In this document: positions 3,533-63,989 of the stretch, one piece after another | Position numbering within the stretch: position 1 is the stretch's first letter | How the letters are laid out: every line of letters begins with the position of its first letter | DNA from: Shigella phage KRT47 | Direction: 5' to 3' (one strand) | Sequence record: MN781580 | Length of the DNA: 64,000 bases | Program-made: the position numbers and the translations under genes | The notes under the pieces: model-generated | Seen by the model: only the letters and a program-made list of their open reading frames with translations | Database searches by the model: none | What the model was told of the DNA's origin: nothing

Positions 3533-4951
3533 TTATGGATAGGTATAGATGATACCAGTTTCTAAAGCAGTTTTATGAATGATGTATCCATTACGTGATT
3601 CTTGAACATCAACTTCTGGATAGTCTTTCATCATCTTCTGAAGGGTGTAACGATGCAGGTAGTATTTACTATCTGGATCTTCAGTTTTCCAATCTTTACC
3701 TTCTTCGGTCATTTTTTGGATTTCATCCATAACCCACCAACCGCACCAGATATAAGCCGAAGTACGATGTGGAAGAGGATGAACATAAGGCAATTCACCT
3801 TCTGGTTCTGGAGCAACTTTATCAGTTACCTGAACTTGACCTTCTGCTGTGATAGTTTTGCTATCATAATCAGTAGCAGTAACAGTTGCAGTAACTTCAA
3901 TAGTTTGACTTCCAATAGATGATGTATCAACGGTGTATACATTAGTTGACCCTTCTACTGGAGAAGAATCTTTCTTCCATGAATATTCAATTTGAGCTTC
4001 TTCTGGAGCATCAGTGACATTAGCCGTAAATGTAGCCGAAGCATCTTGCTGAACGTTAATAGAAGGAGGAGTCAATGTAACCTGTGGATTCATTGTCTTC
4101 TTATTAACCGTTAATGATACTTCATTAGAAGTAACTGTTTTTGGGTCATAATCTGTTGCTGTTACTTGGGCTACGCATTTAATTCTTTTTACTCCACTTG
4201 TAGTTGGAGTATAGCTAAATGTAGCAGAAGTTGCTTCACCAATTTGAGAATCATCTACATACCACTGATACGTAGCAGATGCTTCATCAGGTTGAGAAGC
4301 TAAGGCAGCAGTAAATTGAACTGGGGTTCCGATAACTCCCGCTGGAGGACTATCAGGAGTTACTGCCAAAGTAGTTGTCTGCGTCTTTTTATTAACAGTC
4401 AGTGACACTTCATTAGAAGTAACTTCCTTTGCATCATAATCTGCCGCAGTTACTTGAGCTACACACTTAATTGTTTTAACTCCGCTTGTGTCAGGAGTGT
4501 AATTGAATGTAGCGTCAGTTGCTTCGCCCACAGGAGAACCGTCAACGTACCATTGATACGTAGCAGATGCGCTTGGTGGCTGTGAAGCTAAGGCAGCGGT
4601 AAATTCAATTGGAGTTCCAATCACTCCAGCATCAGGGCTACCAGGAGTTACTGCCAAAGTAGTTGTTTGTGTCTTATTTTGAACTGTGATAGTTGTACTA
4701 ATTTCAGCTGTTTCGGGACTACTATCGGCAACTTGATTGGTTGCAACTACTTTAATAGTCTTTTGACCGGCAGGTCCTTTTAGTACATAACTAAAAGTTG
4801 CTTCAGCTCCATCTTGTGGAACATCGTCTACAGTCCAAGCATATGTAATAGGTCCATCTCCAGTTTGACCACTGGGTGTAGCAGTAAACTGCTGAGTCTG
4901 ATCTATAACTCCAGTAGGTGTTTTAGGAGTTATATCAACTGTAAAAGCCAT
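3533..4951 (-). CDS. hoc: Hoc, highly immunogenic outer capsid protein, with four Ig-like domains
   Basis: 472 aa; repeated Ig-like modules with YxW motifs; two near-identical 96-aa tandem modules; T4 position between 24.3 and inh. Confidence 0.85.
   Translation of the reverse strand: MAFTVDITPKTPTGVIDQTQQFTATPSGQTGDGPITYAWTVDDVPQDGAEATFSYVLKGPAGQKTIKVVATNQVADSSPETAEISTTITVQNKTQTTTLAVTPGSPDAGVIGTPIEFTAALASQPPSASATYQWYVDGSPVGEATDATFNYTPDTSGVKTIKCVAQVTAADYDAKEVTSNEVSLTVNKKTQTTTLAVTPDSPPAGVIGTPVQFTAALASQPDEASATYQWYVDDSQIGEATSATFSYTPTTSGVKRIKCVAQVTATDYDPKTVTSNEVSLTVNKKTMNPQVTLTPPSINVQQDASATFTANVTDAPEEAQIEYSWKKDSSPVEGSTNVYTVDTSSIGSQTIEVTATVTATDYDSKTITAEGQVQVTDKVAPEPEGELPYVHPLPHRTSAYIWCGWWVMDEIQKMTEEGKDWKTEDPDSKYYLHRYTLQKMMKDYPEVDVQESRNGYIIHKTALETGIIYTYP
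4100..4675 (-). repeat. Tandem duplication of about 288 bp inside hoc (two Ig-like domain copies)
   Basis: Protein modules KTQTTTLAVTPGSPDAGVIGTP...SLTVNK and KTQTTTLAVTPDSPPAGVIGTP...SLTVNK are near identical; nucleotide copies visible at about 4100-4387 and 4388-4675. Confidence 0.8.
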
Positions 4952-15731: not shown

Positions 15732-15762
15732 ATGGGGACCGAAAGGTCCCCATATTTTTATT
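15732..15762. terminator. Terminator after gene 54
   Basis: Hairpin GGGGACCGAAAGGTCCCC followed by T-run. Confidence 0.55.
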
Positions 15763-16048
15763 TACGGAATGAAATAAAAGCAGCAACTGAAGCAACTAAA
15801 CTGTCTTCAATATAAACTTCAATTTTTACCGGAGCTTCTGACTCAAATTTACCTGTTACTACACCTTGGAAAATGCTTTCAGTCTGCTGTGGCTTTGAAA
15901 AATTTTCAGAAGGAAAAATTCCGAACTTTTTATCTGTTCCAAAAATTTTGATAAATTCATCATAAACTGCTTCATTAAAAGCATTATCAGCAGGAATAAC
16001 GCCTTCAACTACAAGTTCTTGACCTAAAAAGCGCAAAGAAGATTTCAT
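15758..16048 (-). CDS. Hypothetical protein downstream of alt genes
   Basis: 96 aa ORF preceded by 53-bp repeat element. Confidence 0.5.
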   Translation of the reverse strand: MKSSLRFLGQELVVEGVIPADNAFNEAVYDEFIKIFGTDKKFGIFPSENFSKPQQTESIFQGVVTGKFESEAPVKIEVYIEDSLVASVAAFISFRK

Positions 16049-16056
16049 TTTGTGTT

Positions 16057-16109
16057 CCTCATGTTATGTCAGTAAGACTACTGTAACACAACACGAGGGA
16101 CTTGTAAAC
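16057..16109 (-). repeat. 53-bp exact repeat, copy A (promoter-like GTTTAC plus SD-sequestering hairpin)
   Basis: Identical to 31923-31975; minus strand GTTTAC, 18 nt, TGtTACAGT, then nested inverted repeats CCTCGTGTT/AACATGAGG enclosing the GAGG before the ATG. Confidence 0.8.
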
Positions 16110-18166
16110 TACATCTTGAACTTTTTAGACATTCCGTTGATGTTAACCAAAGAAGCCAAGATTTGAGAAACTTCGTTTTCCTCTTCTTTTGATTCTTCTA
16201 CAAGGAATTGATTAAACCCAGCCATTGGACGAACTTCACCAGTTTCCATTAGATGATCGCCATCATATACCGATTCTTCTAATTGTTCAGAAGGAGGAAC
16301 GATTGTGCCTTCGATTAGATACTTATTATAAGCAGTTTCTTTCATCATGTACGTGCTAACTTTATTAATCTTCAGCAAAATTCCACGCGGTAGAATAACT
16401 TCAGCTTCTGATGGAAATCCTGATAAATGACCTGGAACGATAACTTTAATTCGCTCAGCTCCTTTTATTACCATACCTACGCTAGTTTCAGCATCTTCAT
16501 TCGCATAAGCAGAATGACTGCCCATATGCATTAAATCTTCAGCATCAACAGAACCTTCTCCTTCACCAGAAAATACTGCACCGGAATCATCTAGAGTCAT
16601 ATAGTTTTTACCATGCTCACCGAAGATATTTGGTTTAAGCGATGTTGATACGAAGTTCTTGAAATAAAACATTTTATTTTCAATATTATGACGTAAAGTT
16701 TTAAAGGTAACTTCTTGTCCACGATAAAGCGTAGTTCCTGGAGGAAGAACTGATCCTTTGGCAAAGGCAGAATCCAGCGTCTCGATGTGTTTAATAGCTC
16801 GTTCCATGTATTCTTCACGGGTAGAATCTGGTTTACCCAAGAGGAACGAGTTCATTTCAACATATGAATCTGCACAATAATCTTCAATTACATCAGACTC
16901 AGCCTGAGTTAATCCTTTTGGAGTTACTTCGGTGCTTGCATATTCATATGCCTGAGCAGCAGATTCATTAATCAATTTATAAATGCCATTCATGACAAAT
17001 TGAATAATAGCTACCTTTTCGTCTGGCGTGGCTTTAGAACCTTTAACTAAATCATTGATAATTTTCTTAATAACATCAAAGCTATTAGAAATATTAATGT
17101 CAGCGAGATCGCTCAAAATTTTATCGGTTTTATAATCAAAGAATTCTTTATTCTTTAAATATTCTTGAGAACCTTGATATGTTATATCGCTCTGCAGCTT
17201 GATAGATGGATCACGTAAACGTGCATGGGCCAATGCAATATGATTTCGGAAGCTTTCTAGTTCATAATCGTTAGATTTAAAACGAGAAGCACTTCTCATA
17301 CCACCGATAGCTCCTTTGCTGAAGTTTGAACCAATCTGGATAACGCCAGAGTTCATTGGTCCTTCTGCTTTATATACCGGAACTTTAGATTCAAACTCTT
17401 GATATTTCTTAGCGGCGAAGCTATCACCCTGAAGTGAAGCATCGACAGTAGAATATTGAGCTTGTGCTGCCAATCGACGACTAATTTTAGTTTTCTGAAT
17501 AACAGCTTGATCCGTGCGCTTATCATTTTCTAGAGCAATAGAAGCGGCAACAGCAACAGCTTTAGGAACAGCATTACCTGTTTTAACGTCTACATAAACA
17601 TCACCAACCTTTGATTCAACTTTTGTGAATAACTCAGTTGAAATAGGAGGTACACCTGGAATGTCTTCTAAATTAGCATTTTTACGATAAACCATAATAT
17701 ATGCATACTTTTTATCATAGTCCCAGATTTCCTTTAAAAGAACATATCGACCTGCTCCTTTAGTACGTACTAAACGGTCAGCAATAACTTGCATTTGACG
17801 AGCAGCGCCATTTGTTTTACTTTTTAGTACGCGGAATAGGCATGCGTCAATTTTATACTGTTTCATTGTTTGAAGAGCAGTATCAAAAACCGCATTAATG
17901 ACACCAATTGGATTTCCACCCAAGTTTTTAAGTTTAACTAATGATAGTTTCTCATTAACACCTATCATTACGATATGCATCATTTTATCGCCTGGCTTAA
18001 CGTTTTTATTTGTATCACCGCCAGAGGTGTATGTACAAAATCTAAATCCAGGAAGCACACTTTCTTCACCGGCTTGAATAGCAAAAATTTGAGGTATTTT
18101 ATGCTTAGGATTTAAGTTAACAACCGGCGCCGAAGCGCCGTCAAATAATTCTGTAATAAGTTCCAT
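16109..18166 (-). CDS. alt: Alt-family ADP-ribosyltransferase (capsid-packaged), paralog 1
   Basis: 685 aa; N-terminal MELITE motif (prohead protease site); R-S-E triad LYRGQ / FVSTSL / EAEVILPRG. Confidence 0.85.
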   Translation of the reverse strand: MELITELFDGASAPVVNLNPKHKIPQIFAIQAGEESVLPGFRFCTYTSGGDTNKNVKPGDKMMHIVMIGVNEKLSLVKLKNLGGNPIGVINAVFDTALQTMKQYKIDACLFRVLKSKTNGAARQMQVIADRLVRTKGAGRYVLLKEIWDYDKKYAYIMVYRKNANLEDIPGVPPISTELFTKVESKVGDVYVDVKTGNAVPKAVAVAASIALENDKRTDQAVIQKTKISRRLAAQAQYSTVDASLQGDSFAAKKYQEFESKVPVYKAEGPMNSGVIQIGSNFSKGAIGGMRSASRFKSNDYELESFRNHIALAHARLRDPSIKLQSDITYQGSQEYLKNKEFFDYKTDKILSDLADINISNSFDVIKKIINDLVKGSKATPDEKVAIIQFVMNGIYKLINESAAQAYEYASTEVTPKGLTQAESDVIEDYCADSYVEMNSFLLGKPDSTREEYMERAIKHIETLDSAFAKGSVLPPGTTLYRGQEVTFKTLRHNIENKMFYFKNFVSTSLKPNIFGEHGKNYMTLDDSGAVFSGEGEGSVDAEDLMHMGSHSAYANEDAETSVGMVIKGAERIKVIVPGHLSGFPSEAEVILPRGILLKINKVSTYMMKETAYNKYLIEGTIVPPSEQLEESVYDGDHLMETGEVRPMAGFNQFLVEESKEEENEVSQILASLVNINGMSKKFKM

Positions 18167-18169
18167 GAT

Positions 18170-20266
18170 TTATCCTTGAACGAACTTGTAAGGCATGTTT
18201 GCAATATCTATGCAAGACGCAATAATTCCAAGAGATGATTCTACTTTTTGTTTAACATTTGATGAAACAAATGATGCAAAGTCAACTCTGTCTTCTATTT
18301 CAATATCACCTGTCATTGCAACTACTTCACCAGTTTCCATTAGACGGTCACCGTCATAAATTACTGATTCGGTGAGTTCTTCCGTAGTCATAACTTCAGC
18401 TTGAATGAGTTTTGTATTATTAGATGTTGTTCCGTCATTATTAGAAGCATCAGTTATTTTATTAACTTTGACCATCAATCCTCGTGGTAGAATAACTTCA
18501 GCTTCTGTTGCTATTCCGAGACTTCCTGGATATACAACATTAACTTTATGAGCTCCATCAATTGCCCATCCTATTTGAACTTTAACGTATTCAGGATTTT
18601 CTTTATACGCTCTTATTTCGTTTGGATTAATAGTTATTCCTTCTTCATTTTTATCAACTGTCAATTCATTACGAGCTTCTGGTTCTAAAAGACCAATACC
18701 AGCATGTGTAATTCCAAAACGTCCAAAAATGATAGGAGTTAAAGAAGTAGATACAAAATTTCTGAAATAGAACACTTTATTTTTAACTAGTGCTTCGTAT
18801 ATAGGAGCAGTCATGCTTTGAGCACGATAAACTGTAATGCCTTCTGGTATACGGTCACCATTTTCAAAAGCTGAATCTAAGTTATTTATAGCAGATTCAA
18901 TTTCTTTTTCACTCATTACATCATATCGTTCTGGATTGTAACGACCCAAAAGAAGATTATTGATGTCAGTATATCCTGAACCACAATACTCTCTAATGCC
19001 GCGCTTTTGTGATGGAGTATATTTAGAACCATCACGGGCAATAGTAATATCAATCATTGGACCTGCACCAATTCCAGAAAAGCTGTAAATCATTCTTTTG
19101 AGGAATTTAGTTTTTGCTGCGTTCCAGGAATTTTTAGTCATTTCTTCCCAGACTTCATCTGGCTGTCCTTTACGGGTTTTATTATGTTTATCAAGCCAAT
19201 TATCTTTATATTCTTCAAAGAATTGATTAACAGCTGCTGCGTATTTCTCTAAACATTTTATTGAAGTAGTTGGTTCATTTTTAATCGCATTAAGAATTAC
19301 ATCTTTAATTTTTTCAGAAACTTCATTAACCTCACTTTTTGAAAAGAATTTATAGTCATAATGAAGTTCATCTGCAGTTCCTTCAGCAATAATTTTTGCT
19401 GCTTTAGTTTTAGAAGCCAATGAATTAATTCCAAGTTTCATTTCTTCTGCTTCGGGAATTAAAGGAGCGGTAGCAGGTTTATTGAAATTAGCTGCGGTAG
19501 ATTCATACTTCTGGAATAATTCACTTTCAAATCTAGAAGATTCTAATGATTGACTTTGTGCAATTGCTCTACGGGAAATTTTAACTTTAACGATTACAGC
19601 TTGGTCAGAACGTTTATCATTTTCTTGCGCAATAGATGCAGCAATTGCCTCATTTTTAGTTACTTGAGCTCCAGTATCTTTATTGATATAAACATCACCG
19701 ACCTTCGATTCAACTTTAGTAAAGAGCTCGGTACTAATTTCCGGAACTCCTGGAATGTCTTCTAGTGATACATTTTTGCGATGTATAAGAATATATGCAT
19801 ACTTTTTATCGTAATCCCAGAGTTCCTTAAGAAGGACGTATCTGCCACCTGAACGACTGCGGATAAGTCTATCAGCAATAAGTTGAATTTGACGAGCTTG
19901 ACCAGCAGTTTTAGACTTAAGAATACGGAGCATACAGGCATCAATTTTATACTGACGCATCGTTTGCATTGCAACAGTAAAAACTGAATTGATGTAATTA
20001 ATTGGGCTTGGACCGAGACCTTTTAATTTAGCAATTGAACCTTTAGCAGTTAATGTAAAAGGAACAATATGCATCATTTTATCGCCCATCTTTAAATCGC
20101 GATTAGTATCACCTCCAGATGTATAAGTACATAAACGAAAACCTGGTTGTTCAATTGCGTCATCAACATGAACTGAAAAAATTTGCGGTATTTTCTTCTT
20201 TGGATTTAAGTTTGTAATCGGAAGAGTAGTATCTTCGTCAAATAATTCTGTAATGAGTTCCATCAT
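18170..20266 (-). CDS. alt: Alt-family ADP-ribosyltransferase, paralog 2
   Basis: 698 aa; conserved N-terminal 230 aa with paralog 1, divergent centre, R-S-E triad VYRAQ / FVSTSL / EAEVILPRG. Confidence 0.85.
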   Translation of the reverse strand: MMELITELFDEDTTLPITNLNPKKKIPQIFSVHVDDAIEQPGFRLCTYTSGGDTNRDLKMGDKMMHIVPFTLTAKGSIAKLKGLGPSPINYINSVFTVAMQTMRQYKIDACMLRILKSKTAGQARQIQLIADRLIRSRSGGRYVLLKELWDYDKKYAYILIHRKNVSLEDIPGVPEISTELFTKVESKVGDVYINKDTGAQVTKNEAIAASIAQENDKRSDQAVIVKVKISRRAIAQSQSLESSRFESELFQKYESTAANFNKPATAPLIPEAEEMKLGINSLASKTKAAKIIAEGTADELHYDYKFFSKSEVNEVSEKIKDVILNAIKNEPTTSIKCLEKYAAAVNQFFEEYKDNWLDKHNKTRKGQPDEVWEEMTKNSWNAAKTKFLKRMIYSFSGIGAGPMIDITIARDGSKYTPSQKRGIREYCGSGYTDINNLLLGRYNPERYDVMSEKEIESAINNLDSAFENGDRIPEGITVYRAQSMTAPIYEALVKNKVFYFRNFVSTSLTPIIFGRFGITHAGIGLLEPEARNELTVDKNEEGITINPNEIRAYKENPEYVKVQIGWAIDGAHKVNVVYPGSLGIATEAEVILPRGLMVKVNKITDASNNDGTTSNNTKLIQAEVMTTEELTESVIYDGDRLMETGEVVAMTGDIEIEDRVDFASFVSSNVKQKVESSLGIIASCIDIANMPYKFVQG

Positions 20267-20315
20267 ATCCTCTCTAGTGTTTATTCTATTTATAAAATTA
20301 AAGGCCCGAAGGCCT

Positions 20316-24204: not shown

Positions 24205-24245
24205 AGTATTTTCCTCAGTAAGGGGCCGAAGCCCCTCATTTTATT

Positions 24246-31070: not shown

Positions 31071-31420
31071 TTAGAAAGGTCCTGGATGTCTTCTGCGAAC
31101 TTGTTGAAGGAGTTGTTGATTTGTTTTTCAACCAATCCTGGCTTATGAGCCACCACATCCGCCTTCTTTGCGTCTTTGCGCAGTTTTTCATTTTCACGCT
31201 CAATAGCAGCAATTGCCTCACGATTTTTATTATTCATCGCATCAATATAATTATACTGAATTCGCAAATTATTTAATGCTAAAGCGTTTTCATTGGCCGT
31301 TTTTGTAATTTCTACGACAGACGTTTCTAATCTTTCAATTTTATTTTTTAAAATTAAAGAAGTTCCGCCCAATGCAATTACAATTAATAGCAAGCCTGCT
31401 GTCGTATTACTTAATTGCAT
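31067..31420 (-). CDS. pseT.3: Inner-membrane spanin (i-spanin)
   Basis: 117 aa; N-terminal transmembrane helix followed by coiled-coil-like periplasmic region. Confidence 0.65.
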   Translation of the reverse strand: MQLSNTTAGLLLIVIALGGTSLILKNKIERLETSVVEITKTANENALALNNLRIQYNYIDAMNNKNREAIAAIERENEKLRKDAKKADVVAHKPGLVEKQINNSFNKFAEDIQDLSK

Positions 31421-31917
31421 AAAGTTTTAATAACCTCTATAATATCGTCTTGAGAAAGACCGTTAATTAAAATATGATGTTCAGCCGGAGATTTAGAAAT
31501 TTTAAAGCATGCCTCAACATCTTCTGCCATATCCGATGCGCTACGATTTGGATTACTAATTCCAAGACGATGTTTTCCCGTTAAAGGATTAACGATGATA
31601 TAGCATTTACAGTTGTTAATATGAACATTAGGTTGAGTCTGATTAATGAACACATCACAATCATATTTCGCAAGCTGATTTTCTAAAAAGACTTTCATCT
31701 CCTCAACCGCATCAGGAAGCATATCACGGGCTTGCTCAAGACGACGATTTCGATATTCTTTAATGGTCGTTTTCCGCTTGACTTGCTTAGCTAAATCTTT
31801 CTTAAGATCGGTGATATATCCAACTCGACGATTTCCTTTAAATACAGAAATCCCATCTGTAGTATCACCGTATGCTTCAACGACCATTTCAGTAGTAATA
31901 AGCTGTAAATCCATCAT
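31411..31917 (-). CDS. alc: Alc-like transcription termination factor (host transcription shutoff)
   Basis: 168 aa ORF at T4 alc position between rnlA and pseT.3. Confidence 0.55.
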   Translation of the reverse strand: MMDLQLITTEMVVEAYGDTTDGISVFKGNRRVGYITDLKKDLAKQVKRKTTIKEYRNRRLEQARDMLPDAVEEMKVFLENQLAKYDCDVFINQTQPNVHINNCKCYIIVNPLTGKHRLGISNPNRSASDMAEDVEACFKISKSPAEHHILINGLSQDDIIEVIKTLCN

Positions 31918-31922
31918 AAAGT

Positions 31923-31975
31923 CCTCATGTTATGTCAGTAAGACTACTGTAACACAACACGAGGGACTTGTAAAC
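31923..31975 (-). repeat. 53-bp exact repeat, copy B
   Basis: Identical to 16057-16109; lies between rnlA stop and alc start. Confidence 0.8.
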
Positions 31976-31978
31976 AGC

Positions 31979-33566
<1,588 letters not shown>

Positions 33567-40335: not shown

Positions 40336-40365
40336 ATAGTATCACACTACTACCCTACTGTAAAC
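40336..40365 (-). promoter_or_regulatory. T4-type early promoter
   Basis: Minus strand GTTTAC, 18 nt, TGaTACTAT; -10 in loop of 7-bp inverted repeat TAGGGTA/TACCCTA (40329-40357). Confidence 0.45.
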
Positions 40366-41039: not shown

Positions 41040-41060
41040 CAGCAGTATTGCTGATAGTTG

Positions 41061-41090
41061 TATAGTACCACAGTCCTTGTGGTATGTAAA
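41061..41090 (-). promoter_or_regulatory. T4-type early promoter (part of repeated cassette)
   Basis: Minus strand GTTTAC, 18 nt, TGgTACTAT; spacer contains inverted repeat TACCACA/TGTGGTA. Confidence 0.45.
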
Positions 41091-41111
41091 CCGTTTTGTG
41101 AAAAAATTTTG

Positions 41112-41141
41112 AAATAAAAAAAGGGGACCTCTAGGGTCCCC
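41112..41141 (-). terminator. Intrinsic terminator after gene 32
   Basis: Hairpin GGGGACCCTAGAGGTCCCC followed by U7 on minus strand. Confidence 0.6.
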
Positions 41142-44436: not shown

Positions 44437-47400
44437 ATGGCCGAGATTAAAAGAAAGTTCAGAGCAGAAGATGGTCTGGACGCAGGTGGTGATAAGATTA
44501 TTAATGTCGCGTTAGCTGATCGTACCGTAGGAACTGACGGTGTAAACGTTGACTACTTAATCCAAGAAAACACAGTTCAACAATATGATCCAACTCGTGG
44601 ATATTTAAAAGATTTCGTAATCATTTATGATAACCGTTTTTGGGCTGCTATAAATGATATTCCAAAACCGGCAGGAGCTTTTAATAGCGGACGCTGGAGA
44701 GCATTACGTACCGATGCTAACTGGATTACAGTCTCATCTGGTTCATATCAATTAAAATCAGGTGAAGCTATTTCGGTTAACACTGCAGCTGGTAATGATA
44801 TTACATTTACTTTACCATCTACTCCAATTGACGGTGATACTATCATTCTCCAAGATATTGGAGGAAAACCTGGAGTTAACCAAGTTTTAATTGTAGCTCC
44901 AGTGCAAAGTATTGTAAACTTCAGAGGCGAGCAAGTACGTTCAGTACTAATGACTCATCCAAAGTCACAGTTAGTTTTAATTTTTAGTAATCGTCTGTGG
45001 CAAATGTATGTAGCTGATTATAGTAGAGAAGCTGTAGTTGTAACACCAGCGAATACTTATCAAGCACAATCCAACGATTTTATCGTACGTAGATTTACTT
45101 CTGCTGCACCGATAAATATTAAACTTCCGAGATTTGCTAATCACGGCGATATTATTAATTTCGTCGATTTGGATAAATTAAACCCTCTTTATCATACAAT
45201 TGTTACGACATATGATGAAACAACATCAGTACAAGAAGATGGAACTCATTCCATTGAAGGCCGTACATCGATTGACGGTTTCTTGATGTTTGATGATAAT
45301 GAGAAATTATGGAGATTGTTTGACGGGGACAGTAAAGCACGTTTACGTATCATAACGACTAATTCAAATATTCGTCCAAACGAAGAAGTTATGGTATTTG
45401 GTGCAAATAACGGAACAACTCAAACGATTGAGCTTCAGCTTCCAACTAATATTTCTGTTGGTGATACTGTTAAAATTTCCATGAATTACATGAGAAAAGG
45501 ACAAACAGTTAAAATCAAAGCTGCAGGTGAAGATAAAATTGCTTCTTCAGTTCAATTGCTGCAATTCCCAAAACGTTCAGAATATCCGCCTGAAGCTGAA
45601 TGGGTGACTGTTCAAGAATTGGTTTTTAATGGCGAAACTAATTATGTTCCAGTTTTACAACTTGCTTATATAGAAGATTCTGACGGAAAATACTGGGTTG
45701 TACAACAAAACGTTCCAACCGTAGAAAGAGTTGATTCTTTAAACGATTCTACTAGAGCAAGATTAGGCGTGATTGCTTTAGCTACACAAGCGCAAGCTAA
45801 TGTCGATTTAGAAAATTCTCCACAAAAAGAATTAGCAATTACTCCAGAAACATTAGCTAACCGTACTGCTACAGAAACTCGTAGAGGTATCGCGAGAATA
45901 GCAACCACTGCTCAAGTAAATCAGAACACCACATTCTCTTTTGCTGATGATATTATCATTACTCCTAAAAAGCTGAATGAAAGAACTGCTACAGAAACTC
46001 GTAGAGGTGTCGCTGAAATTGCTACACAACAGGAAACTAATGCAGGTACTGATGATACTACAATCATCACTCCTAAAAAGCTTCAAGCTCGACAAGGTTC
46101 TGAATCATTATCTGGTATTGTAACCTTTGTATCTACCGCAGGAGCTACTCCAGCTTCTAGTCGTGAATTAAATGGTACAAACGTTTATAATAAAAACACT
46201 AATAATTTAGTTGTTTCGCCTAAAGCTCTGGATCAGTATAAAGCTACTCCAACACAACAAGGTGCAGTAATTTTAGCAGTTGAAAGTGAAGTAATTGCTG
46301 GACAAAGCCAAGAAGGATGGGCAAATGCGGTTGTAACGCCAGAAACGTTACATAAAAAGACATCAACTGATGGAAGAATTGGTTTAATTGAAATTGCTAC
46401 GCAAAGTGAAGTTAATACAGGAACTGATTATACTCGTGCAGTCACTCCTAAAACTTTAAATGACCGTAAAGCAACTGAAAGTTTAAGTGGTATAGCTGAA
46501 CTTGCTACGCAAGTTGAATTCGACGCAGGCGTCGACGATACTCGTATCTCTACACCATTAAAAATTAAAACCAGATTTAATAGTACTGATCGTACTTCTG
46601 TTGTTGCTCTATCTGGATTAGTTGAATCAGGAACTCTCTGGGACCATTATACCCTTAATATTCTTGAAGCAAATGAGACACAGCGTGGTACACTTCGTGT
46701 AGCTACACAAGTTGAAGCTGCTGCAGGAACATTAGATAATGTTTTAATAACTCCTAAAAAGCTTTTAGGTACTAAATCTACTGAAGCACAGGAAGGTGTT
46801 ATTAAAGTTGCAACTCAGTCTGAAACTGTGGCTGGAACGTCAGCAAATACTGCTGTATCTCCAAAAAATTTAAAATGGATTGTGCAGAGTGAACCTACTT
46901 GGGCAGCTACTACTGCGATAAGAGGCTTTGTTAAAACTTCATCTGGTTCAATTACATTCGTTGGTAACGATACAGTTGGTTCAACACAGTCGTTAGAATT
47001 ATACGAGAAAAATAGCTATGCAGTATCACCATATGAATTAAACCGTGTATTAGCAAATTATTTGCCATTAAAAGCAAAAGCTGCTGATACAAATTTATTG
47101 GATGGTCTAGATTCATCTCAATTCATTCGTAGGGATATTGCACAGACAGTTAATGGTTCACTAACCTTAACTCAACAAACGAATCTGAGTGCCCCTCTTG
47201 TATCATCTAGTACTGCTACGTTTGGCGGATCAGTTTCGGCAAACAGCACATTAACTATTTCTAATACTGGAACGGCAACTCGTCTGATTTTTGAGAAAGG
47301 ACCTCAAACTGGAACTAACCCAGTACAGACGATGACTATCAGAGTTTGGGGAAATCAGTTTGGTGGCGGTTCAGATACAACACGTTCTACTGTATTTGAA

Positions 47401-58238: not shown

Positions 58239-58279
58239 TTTCTAATCTCCGTAATTCTGTATCAGTAGTTGATAGTTGT

Positions 58280-58309
58280 ATAGTACCACAGTATGCTTTG
58301 GTTGTAAAC
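58280..58309 (-). promoter_or_regulatory. T4-type early promoter for motA (part of repeated cassette)
   Basis: Minus strand GTTTAC, 18 nt, TGgTACTAT. Confidence 0.5.
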
Positions 58310-58331
58310 CGTTTTGTGAAAAAAATTTTGA

Positions 58332-58361
58332 AATAAAAAAAGGGAGAGCCTCGGCTCTCCC
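58332..58361 (-). terminator. Intrinsic terminator
   Basis: Hairpin GGGAGAGCCGAGGCTCTCCC followed by U-run on minus strand. Confidence 0.6.
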
Positions 58362-61289: not shown

Positions 61290-61417
61290 AGTAAGCGTTT
61301 AATACATCAATCATTAAAACGATTGGGAATATACTCAAAACTATTAGTATTATAACTGCATTCCATATAGCTTTAACAATCTTTTTCATTTTCTGTTCCT
61401 CCGTAGTTGATAGTTGT

Positions 61418-61447
61418 ATAGTACCACAGAGGAACAGTCTTGTAAAC
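61418..61447 (-). promoter_or_regulatory. T4-type early promoter
   Basis: Minus strand GTTTAC, 18 nt, TGgTACTAT. Confidence 0.45.
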
Positions 61448-61632
61448 AACTTTTTTAAAAATATTCGTAATAAATGTGAATACCAACTACTACTGCTGAA
61501 ACTTGCGCAACCCACCACGCACAAGCAATAAGTACAGAATTCAAAATTTTCATAATAACCTCATCACAAAAGTAAATGTTAAACAAATTAATGGAATACT
61601 AATTAACCAAACAAAACACCACCACAATGAAC

Positions 61633-61896: not shown

Positions 61897-61923
61897 TTTT
61901 ACTCCTCCGTAGCTGATAGTTGT

Positions 61924-61953
61924 ATAGTACCACAGTCCTTGTGGTATGTAAAC
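61924..61953 (-). promoter_or_regulatory. T4-type early promoter
   Basis: Minus strand GTTTAC, 18 nt, TGgTACTAT; 42 bp identical to promoter at 41049-41090. Confidence 0.45.
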
Positions 61954-61969
61954 TTTTTTGTGAAAATTT

Positions 61970-62527
61970 TTAAATGTAAAGATACCATCCATTGTAGTTG
62001 CTTTTTCTCACAACCTTACGAAGGTCTTCTCTATCACCAATGAACTTCGGAGTGTACTGGATGACACCTGGATGAATTTCTTTAGTGTTGAATATAATTA
62101 TACAGTCAGCGACCTGATGATTCAGAATGGGCCCTAGATTTATTCCAGAACCATATGGATACTCTCCGCTGCATCCTGTTGTTACAGAAATCCAACGTGA
62201 GTCAGTTTGATGTGTCTTAACTTCTACACGAAGCCCGCAGTATCTTGGATGCGCCAATACGTCCCATGCGTATGTATACGGATCATTAACATCCTCTTGG
62301 CCTTTGTTAACATACCCGCTTAGCCAATCTGCTACAAAAAACTCTGCGTACACCGCGATACGGCATCTTTCGATAACTTCTGCTTTATCCTGATTTGGAT
62401 TTTGTTTTAAAGAGTATCTTGCTGTATCAGCAATTTTGACCTTCATTTCACTAGTCAAGTCACTGTTCGATAGGGTAAATGTCGGAATCTGAAATAGTCT
62501 CTGTAAACCCGGATTCGTTTTCTGCAT
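61970..62527 (-). CDS. denB: Endonuclease IV DenB
   Basis: 185 aa at T4 denB position. Confidence 0.7.
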   Translation of the reverse strand: MQKTNPGLQRLFQIPTFTLSNSDLTSEMKVKIADTARYSLKQNPNQDKAEVIERCRIAVYAEFFVADWLSGYVNKGQEDVNDPYTYAWDVLAHPRYCGLRVEVKTHQTDSRWISVTTGCSGEYPYGSGINLGPILNHQVADCIIIFNTKEIHPGVIQYTPKFIGDREDLRKVVRKSNYNGWYLYI

Positions 62528-62789: not shown

Positions 62790-62797
62790 AATTTTTC

Positions 62798-62833
62798 CTT
62801 AAAACAAAAGGGCCGAAGCCCCTTATTTTATTT
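62798..62833. terminator. Bidirectional hairpin terminator
   Basis: GGGCCGAAGCCC hairpin flanked by A-run and T-run. Confidence 0.5.
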
Positions 62834-63022: not shown

Positions 63023-63050
63023 AATTTTCCTTAGTTAAGGGCCGAAGCCC

Positions 63051-63989
63051 TTATTTAAATTGTTCAGTAACGTCTTCAACTACTTCGTATTGGCAGGTAC
63101 GCATTTTAGCATCGTTGTAATCAATCGGAATTGATACTACATCACGCGGATGCACTTTAACTTTTACAACTCGACTGGTTGAACTGCCAAAGTGACGAAT
63201 ATAAGATTTAGAACACACATGAAGACCACGAGAACAAGTTTGTGTATCATCGTCATTCACACGAGTACGTGGCATTTTAACTACTTTACCAGGACTGTTA
63301 TCAAAAGTATTTGAATGACAGTCAAAGTAATTACTGCGAACTACTTTCCAAGCATAGAAGTAACCATCTTCTGTAATTTCAATATCGTTTGCTACCAAGA
63401 AATCAAAGAGTCGAGATACCGCTTTCTGGCTTGGGTTTTCCAGCAGATTTTCCAAGAACGGAAAATAAAATTCAAAGTTTTCGCCTTTTTCCATCGAATC
63501 GAGAATACGATCAACTAAACCAGACCGCAATTCAATATTTTGATAGAACAAGCTTCCACCTTCAATTCTAACATCACCGGAAATATATTTTTCAACAGCG
63601 CGACGAACATTAATTTTTTGCGCCGCTTCTTCCAATTTATCTGCAACAAGCAGATTAAGAATTTCCTGGAAGTTTGAATGAGTATTAGGAGTTGCGTTAT
63701 AAGTTACACCATCAACAGTAATTGAAATGAATTTTTTAGATGCATTCCAAATAATGTCAGATTTAGCAACTGGAGCAATAACTGCATCGCTATTAACTTT
63801 AACTGTAATATCACCGCTAATAGTAACTTTAGGGCGTTTAGCTTCTTCAGCATTTTTCAAAACACGACGGATTGTGTCAACCGATACATCCTTCCAATAA
63901 GCCAATTCCTGTTGGGTGTAATTACCGCTTGAATACAGTTTAACAATTTCAGCTTGTTCGTTTTTGGTCAGGCATTTAATATTGTACAT
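63051..63989 (-). CDS. rIIB: rIIB membrane-associated protein
   Basis: 312 aa; N-terminus MYNIKCLTKNEQAEIVKLYSSGNYTQQELA. Confidence 0.85.
   Translation of the reverse strand: MYNIKCLTKNEQAEIVKLYSSGNYTQQELAYWKDVSVDTIRRVLKNAEEAKRPKVTISGDITVKVNSDAVIAPVAKSDIIWNASKKFISITVDGVTYNATPNTHSNFQEILNLLVADKLEEAAQKINVRRAVEKYISGDVRIEGGSLFYQNIELRSGLVDRILDSMEKGENFEFYFPFLENLLENPSQKAVSRLFDFLVANDIEITEDGYFYAWKVVRSNYFDCHSNTFDNSPGKVVKMPRTRVNDDDTQTCSRGLHVCSKSYIRHFGSSTSRVVKVKVHPRDVVSIPIDYNDAKMRTCQYEVVEDVTEQFK

Follow-up and report, generated by a model that had tools for sequence, protein, structure and literature searches.

An exact direct repeat of 54 nucleotides (nt) lies on the minus strand of the 64,000-nt stretch of the Shigella phage KRT47 genome analyzed here (sequence record MN781580; hereafter the window), at 16056–16109 and 31922–31975 (family D10 in a repeat search of the window). 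It occupies the whole intergenic gap between an alt paralog and alt.-3 (copy A) and between rnlA and alc (copy B). Both copies match the early promoters of phage T4 and continue into a leader that ends in a Shine-Dalgarno (SD) sequence, and the spacer between the −35 and −10 elements encodes a strand complementary to that leader. On balance, we consider it probable that the repeat is an early promoter-leader-SD cassette whose spacer masks the ribosome-binding site (RBS) in RNA reading through from upstream genes. We infer the start site, hairpin formation in vivo and the effect on translation from the promoter consensus and the predicted structures.

The window is a segment of a Tequatrovirus (T4-like) genome, and about 500 phage records align at 95%–99% identity with 800-bp pieces taken around the two sites. 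The flanks of the two copies are unrelated on either side, and the 54-bp identity is far above chance, as unrelated T4-type early-promoter cassettes are only 63%–78% identical over an equal length. An initial annotation of this DNA had described an exact repeat of 53 bp at the two loci; the repeat is real, and its length is 54 bp, with the A of GAGGA (minus strand) as the extra base. The genes placed downstream by that annotation were correct, the 96-aa open reading frame (ORF) being Alt.-3 (Pfam DUF5498) and the ORF ending at 31411 being Alc (PF17527).

The cassette and its predicted hairpin

The elements of the cassette and the genes around it are as follows.

16056–16109, minus strand: copy A of the 54-bp cassette; it opens on the final base of the stop codon of the alt paralog and closes with GAGGA, leaving 7 nt to the ATG of alt.-3
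31922–31975, minus strand: copy B of the 54-bp cassette, beginning 3 nt past the rnlA stop; its end is separated by 7 nt from the ATG annotated for alc (31914)
16104–16109 (copy B 31970–31975), minus strand: −35 element GTTTAC, matching the T4 early consensus
16080–16088 (copy B 31946–31954), minus strand: extended −10 element TGT-TACAGT, where T4 has TATAGT; T22, T25, A26 and T30 are invariant across genera
16073 (copy B 31939), minus strand: predicted +1, the A at element position 37, based on the consensus
16079–16098 (copy B 31945–31964), minus strand: hairpin 5′ half, element positions 12–31, within the spacer and −10, from minimum free energy structures; anti-SD CCUC at 16095–16098
16057–16074 (copy B 31923–31940), minus strand: hairpin 3′ half, element positions 36–53; SD GAGG at 16057–16060 (copy B 31923–31926)
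15758–16048, minus strand: alt.-3, 96 aa, DUF5498, which copy A serves
31411–31914, minus strand: alc, 167 aa, PF17527, which copy B serves; a further in-frame ATG lies at 31917
16109–18166, minus strand: second full-length alt paralog, upstream of copy A; the G of GTTTAC is shared with its stop codon, TAG
31979–33139, minus strand: rnlA ORF (RNA ligase 1), upstream of copy B
15732–15753, both directions: terminator-like hairpin separating alt.-3 from the convergent gene 54, at the end of the unit and outside the repeat

On the minus strand, the cassette reads GTTTAC AAGTCCCTCGTGTTGTGT TACAGT AGTCTTACTGACATAACATGAGGA, with GTTTAC at 16109–16104 followed by an 18-nt spacer and by TACAGT at 16085–16080, directly preceded by TGT. 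Both copies thus carry the defining features of T4 early promoters, namely a −35 GTTTAC, a spacer of 17–18 nt, TGn and a −10 of the form TAnnnT, and a generic promoter scan detects both, including the TG. The T4 early consensus places GTTTAC at −36 to −31 and the −10, preceded by TGn, so that it ends at −7 (PMC1524935, PMC2988021). Applied to the cassette, both anchors agree on the same +1, which follows the −10 by 7 nt and the G of GTTTAC by 36 nt. The shared features accordingly extend from the position of the −35 through a GT-rich spacer end, TGn and TAnnnT to an A start 7 nt downstream, whereas the −10 is TACAGT rather than the TATAGT of T4 and the −35 is abutted by the upstream stop codon. 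Across 18 diverged alc cassettes, the arms vary, whereas no change is seen in the −35, in C12 of the anti-SD, in the T of TGn, in T-A---T of the −10 or in A37, and the record of phage fPS-65 labels the site "predicted early promoter". The promoter-like motif pointed out initially is therefore well supported, with its −35, TGn, −10 and +1 positions conserved across genera. The complementarity between spacer and leader is a feature of the cassette that goes unmentioned in published descriptions of the T4 early consensus.

Neither a MotA box nor the late-promoter motif TATAAATA is present within the cassette, and T4 GenBank records carry no promoter features at the cassette sites. The A-rich UP element of T4 early promoters lies at about −40 to −55, and because the upstream stop codon abuts the −35, any such element would fall in coding sequence. 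A-rich stretches upstream of the −35 comprise AAAAAG about 15 nt away within the alt paralog for copy A and a more distant A-run for copy B.

RNA that reads through the cassette is predicted to fold into an 18-bp hairpin (positions 12–24 with 41–53, a 2-nt bulge, 27–31 with 36–40, and a loop at 32–35), the outer helix of which pairs CCUCGUGUUGUGU with ACAUAACAUGAGG and includes two G·U pairs. With predicted folding energies of −25.9 and −28.6 kcal/mol, the two copies reach z-scores of −4.6 and −5.8 relative to dinucleotide shuffles, and none of 200 shuffles is equally stable. Folding bears out the initial proposal that the hairpin includes the GAGG SD, whose predicted probability of being unpaired is 0.00 when read-through RNA is folded together with 200 nt of its natural upstream sequence.

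The whole 5′ half of this hairpin, including the anti-SD CCUC (positions 12–15), lies upstream of the predicted +1 at position 37. As the 5′ arm precedes +1, the hairpin cannot form in RNA from the cassette's own promoter and is confined to RNA reading through from alt or rnlA. A transcript beginning at the predicted +1 holds the 3′ half only and is nearly unstructured (about −1 to −2 kcal/mol), and the predicted cost of opening the region from SD to start codon falls from 15.5 (alt.-3) and 17.9 (alc) kcal/mol in read-through RNA to 2.3 (alt.-3) and 4.4 (alc) kcal/mol in own-promoter RNA. The hairpin had initially been assigned to the leader of the promoter itself, which the position of the 5′ half contradicts, own-promoter RNA being predicted to be open. 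Transcript starts lying downstream of the stem at all times had been proposed as a finding that would speak against the hairpin; under the masking model, a start 3′ of the 5′ arm is instead what would be expected.

The tails behind the hairpin, AACACAAAAUG and ACUUUAUGAUG, hold no U-tract, and a terminator scan gives no match at either cassette. An intrinsic terminator was rejected on these grounds. Rfam yields no match at gathering score in the whole window, and only chance-level matches to miRNA precursors (E of 0.2 or more).

Covariation of the hairpin arms at alc across Straboviridae

Homologues of Alc at 33%–60% identity occur throughout the Straboviridae, with the rnlA-alc synteny and a gap of about 60 nt retained. 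In six of seven other genera compared through GenBank records (Gelderland-, Karam-, Jiaoda-, Braga-, Dhaka- and Winklervirus), the gap has a like layout, consisting of GTTTACA, a spacer that opens with the anti-SD, TGn-TAnnAT, and an SD-bearing 3′ part of the leader that pairs with the spacer. The arm sequences themselves vary by genus (for example, UCUCCAUUUGGUU / AACCAAAUGGAGA, AACCUCUCAUUUUUA / UGAAAAUGAGAGGUU and UCCUCAUUUCGUU / AACGAAAUGAGGA). A scan of IMG/VR with an alignment of Alc added 41 loci, the majority with the alc cassette architecture, and overall the SD lies inside the 3′ arm at alc in at least 12 independent sequence variants, with the anti-SD at a fixed position 9 after GTTTACA. 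At three of the IMG/VR loci (L059, L060 and L087), the place of the early promoter upstream of alc is taken by a terminator-like, GC-rich hairpin (GGGGTGTACAAGCCCC, then a T-run), and the match to alc is drawn out over about 740 nt, which suggests an insertion in or beside alc.

RNAalifold returned no structure from a plain MAFFT alignment of 18 cassettes, because the arms stand in different registers, and duplex-energy permutation tests and a register-anchored alignment of the arms were used in its place. Of 18 distinct cassettes, 14 have a spacer whose strongest pairing is with its own leader; mean energies are −17.8 kcal/mol for self and −9.7 kcal/mol for cross pairings; no permutation out of 200,000 matched the observed own-leader energy, and a smaller test on seven genera gave 1 of 5,040. 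In the arm alignment (19 cassettes, 12 pairs, with the final G of the SD as anchor and the register fitted as one parameter per sequence), 92.1% of cells pair, compared with 70.1% in shuffles (0/500). Nine of the 12 pairs vary on both sides, and compensatory cells number 53 where 17 are expected (0/500), while sliding the partner by one to three columns lowers pairing to 37%–57%. The helix contacts across alc cassettes comprise 242 Watson-Crick, 12 G·U, 2 A·C and 3 other pairs, and in Tequatrovirus the sense fold exceeds the antisense fold in stability by about 8 kcal/mol. The excess of G·U over A·C and this sense-fold advantage favor a helix in sense-strand RNA over a DNA cruciform. Judged from these comparisons of sequence, the architecture at alc is ancient and under selection.

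Probable duplication to alt.-3 and variation within Tequatrovirus

The alc-type architecture stands at alt.-3 in Tequatrovirus only, since alt.-3 is arranged differently in other genera and the cassette cores of the Karam- and Dhaka-type alc loci occur once per genome. Among alt.-3 homologues of five other genera, an early promoter also follows directly on the alt stop codon, with a hairpin wholly within the spacer (for example, GCACATGGATGTGT and CCACAAGGACGTGG) and a free SD. As the alc-type arrangement at alt.-3 is confined to Tequatrovirus, one of the two copies is a genus-specific duplication, in line with the relatedness of the copies implied by the initial annotation, and the simplest reading of these sequences is that the cassette was copied between the loci in an ancestor of the genus. 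The borders of such a copy would be GTTTACA(A) and (C)ATGAGGA, which are common to all these cassettes. Sequence identity gives no answer as to the direction of copying, because all early cassettes are 63%–78% alike; the architecture alone suggests alc as the source. A Mosigvirus has a cassette with an intra-spacer hairpin at alc, and exchange of cassettes between loci therefore recurs, in the manner of the shuffling described for PeSL (early promoter plus stem-loop) cassettes (PMC2839356, PMC4122927).

A 66-nt query finds the cassette at 999 places in 501 records, that is, two per genome, T4 and T2 included. The two T4 copies differ at one position; pair 27–40 is C-G in the window, U·G at T4 alc and U-A at T4 alt.-3. 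Exact identity between the copies had initially been read as a possible sign of gene conversion. Across 18 genomes from which both copies were recovered, the copies differ by 0–5 nt within a genome and are identical in three, and the mean distance within genomes (2.1 of 54 nt) equals that between genomes (2.2 of 54 nt; 34,047 of 100,000 permutations, not significant). Ongoing conversion as the cause of the identity was rejected accordingly. Orthologous copies differ by only 1.5–2.4 of 54 nt, and exact identity in the window genome is to be expected from such a shallow divergence of the genus. Polymorphic sites 11, 16, 27 and 32 are common to both copies and leave room for rare exchange between them. 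The variant found in the window (C27, −10 TACAGT) occurs in 110 of 499 records at alc and in 6 of 501 at alt.-3, and C27 at alt.-3 in the window lineage could have arisen either by mutation or by copying from alc.

The hairpin is stable at alc in all 18 genomes (−24.5 to −28.6 kcal/mol) and at alt.-3 in 17. Covariation within the genus is too sparse to decide the matter. Scans for more copies returned 10 stretches in IMG/VR and 11 in metagenomes. Three records attributed to phages of non-enterobacterial hosts (MG010123.1, Staphylococcus phage SAJK-IND; PV654520.1 and OR584013.1, Pseudomonas phages) hold the Tequatrovirus cassette or a 98%-identical Alc and are probably contaminated or mislabelled entries.

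Upstream of copy A, the window has two full-length alt paralogs in tandem (16109–18166 and 18170–20266; 685 and 698 aa), between which repeats D3, D4, D11 and D12 recur at 2.09-kb spacing with 73%–80% identity. T4 retains mere remnants (alt.-1 and alt.-2) of the second alt copy.

Proposed masking of read-through RNA and related systems

In T4, alc and alt.-3 are early in both RNA and protein, while alt.-1 and alt.-2 are middle, alt and denA have middle RNA and late protein, and rnlA has early RNA and late protein (PMC9697503 supplements). Co-directional middle promoters (PnrdA, PnrdB and PI-TevIII) lie upstream of rnlA-alc (PMC2988021 Table 1), the middle promoter P30 would be a source of upstream transcription for the alt unit, and the extension of early transcripts is established (PMC2988021). 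In the window, the late-promoter motif TATAAATA occurs at 20294, ahead of the first alt paralog, and the terminator scan finds no terminator-like site between the upstream genes and the cassettes. Given these upstream middle and late promoters, the fact that early transcripts are known to be extended and the lack of an intervening terminator, read-through into the cassettes is plausible.

The cassette would then combine an early sigma-70-type promoter, a leader of 20–25 nt and an SD with an untranscribed spacer that encodes the anti-SD and anti-leader strand. Just after infection, host RNA polymerase would start at the cassette (at about A16073 and A31939) and produce a short-leader RNA lacking the anti-SD strand, on which an open ribosome-binding site would allow Alc and Alt.-3 to be made immediately. 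RNA arriving later from upstream, whether extended early, middle-mode or late, and whether from alt or from nrdA-nrdB-denA-rnlA, would carry both arms and fold into the 18-bp hairpin that buries GAGG, leaving alc and alt.-3 untranslated from the long RNA. Translation of the two genes would in effect be bound to their own early promoter, making their expression early-only and insulated. The masking model fits the T4 omics data, in which alc and alt.-3 are early and their upstream neighbors middle or late.

Hairpins that mask an RBS and contain an internal promoter are known from T4 e, soc, 49 and I-TevI, and also from I-TevII/III, Aeh1 mobE and segB (PMC3014915). In the T4 e, soc, 49 and I-TevI cases, the long transcript folds over the SD or AUG, whereas a short transcript from a promoter inside the region encoding the 5′ strand is translated (PMC3014915). 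The cassette is alike by prediction, in that the SD is paired in the long transcript and its own transcript starts 3′ of the masking strand. These known cases have a late (gp55, TATAAATA) or middle internal promoter and are translated late only, whereas the cassette has a sigma-70 early promoter with the anti-SD in the −35/−10 spacer and a predicted early-only translation. By this analogy, we infer that the cassette is an early-promoter mirror image of the e/soc/49/I-TevI hairpins, with the opposite temporal outcome. Neither alc, alt.-3 nor any early-promoter case is listed in accessible reviews of RBS-masking hairpins in T4. A search of the accessible literature for a mapped promoter of alc or alt.-3, for hairpins at early promoters and for T4 transcription start site maps turned up no account of the present case, and the CmdTAC paper mentions alt.-3 for C-terminal extension mutants only, not for regulation.

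PeSLs (Arbiol 2010; Comeau 2014) are likewise short intergenic cassettes in which a strong early promoter is combined with a stem-loop and with an SD followed by ATG, and they are likewise repeated in the genome and exchanged between loci. Other genera have another cassette type at alt.-3. Their stem-loop, as described in the legend to Fig. 3 of PMC4122927, is a terminator placed upstream of the −35 as well as behind an AT-rich tract, whereas the stem of the present cassette spans the spacer, −10 and leader, ends in the SD and has no U-tract. PeSLs are characterized by many copies dispersed over hyperplastic regions, together with indels and mini-circles; the cassette has two copies, and the promoter families D1 and D7 are multi-copy in the window. 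Mini-circle excision is an implausible role, because there are only two copies, 15.9 kb apart, and they flank essential genes.

PeSLs nonetheless raise an alternative that we regard as unlikely, namely that the hairpin serves the upstream RNA, as a PeSL-like attenuator or terminator or as a 3′-end stabilizer or processing site for the alt and rnlA messages, and that inclusion of the SD is a by-product of the 60-nt gap. The PeSLs of T4-type phages do pair an early promoter with a stem-loop that ends upstream transcription (PMC2839356, PMC4122927), and equally strong hairpins that leave the SD uncovered occur at several early promoters of the window and at some alc cassettes, suggesting an SD-independent role. 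This explanation is countered by the missing U-tract and the negative terminator scan, by the place of the PeSL stem-loop, in that figure legend, upstream of the −35 and not across the promoter, and by the recurrence of the SD in the alc 3′ arm opposite a fixed anti-SD, which would be needless for a mere stabilizer. It is also improbable that the inverted repeat works as DNA, be it as a cruciform, as an operator for a phage or host protein (for example, in early-promoter shut-off) or in recombination. The arms are wholly different between genera with pairing retained, which argues against a sequence-specific protein site, and both the G·U excess and the Tequatrovirus sense fold indicate sense-strand RNA, even if the repeat flanks the −10 element, the mechanism of T4 early-promoter shut-off is unknown (PMC2988021), Arbiol et al. 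speculated on protein binding by PeSL stems, and the antisense fold equals or betters the sense fold in two of seven genera.

Translational coupling, in which ribosomes ending alt or rnlA would melt the anti-SD and permit alt.-3 or alc to be translated from the long RNA, seems very improbable. In other systems, genes are known to be coupled through the melting of a hairpin, and the anti-SD is the stem segment closest to the upstream stop, 10 nt (alt paralog) or 14 nt (rnlA) past it. A ribosome with a stop codon in the A site, however, covers about 10 nt past the stop, a reach that ends at element position 11 (alt) or 7 (rnlA), while the anti-SD begins at 12 and the stem has 18 bp; moreover, the distance from stop to anti-SD is similar or larger in other genera, and Alt is a late protein but Alt.-3 an early one. 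We find it hardly credible that the complementarity is neutral and functionless and the repeat a recent duplication yet to diverge. The shallowness of the genus does mean that identity of the copies needs no special force, but neutrality cannot account for the compensatory covariation across genera, nor for the excess complementarity between spacer and own leader at 11 independent promoters of the window (28 of 100,000 permutations as good).

The last result comes from the minus strand of the window, where twelve strong early-promoter-like sites are followed by a start codon. At seven of these, a strong hairpin places its 5′ arm in the spacer and its 3′ arm beyond the −10; spacer-only hairpins occur at two more, and RNA from the predicted +1 is unstructured at nearly all twelve. 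The promoters at 61447 and 25068 (GTTTAC-17/18-TGnTAnnnT, minus strand) have hairpins whose 3′ arm includes the SD, and the ORFs downstream of these window promoters belong to PHROGs of unknown function. The 54-bp cassette is the strongest, and duplicated, member of this wider class of promoter hairpins, of which no description was found in the accessible literature, although older T4 work could contain one. As a tentative extension that we are somewhat inclined to doubt, T-even-type phages may follow a general rule by which the early-promoter spacer encodes a strand complementary to its own leader, often to the SD, so that RNA coming in from upstream would be folded closed at the gene and only promoter-proximal RNA would be translated.

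Besides the fitted register of the arm alignment, several observations weigh against masking of the SD as the function of these hairpins. The hairpins at 40365, 28650 and 24676 straddle the −10 and end near +1 to +10, short of the SD, those at 61953 and 41091 (CCACAAGGACTGTGG) lie wholly within the spacer, and five alc cassettes (L067, L072, L070, L085 and L086) have hairpins that are not tied to the SD, either stopping short of it or being spacer-only; such hairpins may have a more general, SD-independent role. The sense fold beats the antisense fold in only five of seven genera. Within Tequatrovirus, variation in the 5′ arm breaks pairs (12, 14, 19 and 29) about as often as it keeps them (13, 15 and 16), and the alt.-3 hairpin is weakened in one of the 18 genomes (−13.9 kcal/mol).

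Other repeats of the window include a four-copy family of about 76 nt and 63%–82% identity (D1; 41052–41127, 58270–58345, 61408–61483 and 61914–61989). These are early-promoter cassettes with an A/T-rich upstream region, one of them before motA (start 58238), and resemble a multi-copy regulatory cassette of PeSL-like type. A three-copy family of terminator-like GC hairpins shares the core GGGGCCGAAGCCCC (D8; 24208–24245, 62795–62832 and 63024–63061). Direct repeats inside coding regions at 4095–4687 and 45838–46763 (79%–82% identity at 288-nt spacing and 65%–82% in units of 33–68 nt) look like repeated protein modules, perhaps of fibre type.

If masking by the spacer is true, T4-type phages apply one RNA trick both ways, with a late promoter inside the mask giving late-only and an early promoter giving early-only proteins, the latter proposed here for Alc, the inhibitor of host transcription, and Alt.-3. 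This would explain the early status of both proteins despite their place directly downstream of middle and late units, would give a function to the promoter spacer, usually thought free to vary, and would make a testable post-transcriptional contribution to early-gene shut-off. The general rule, if true, would mean that the shut-off of early expression, which is still unexplained, has a further, post-transcriptional component, and it would explain how a cassette can be transferred from one locus to another (in Tequatrovirus, from alc to alt.-3) while its neighbors stay undisturbed. A promoter, insulator and RBS within about 54 bp would also be a ready-made part for synthetic operon design.

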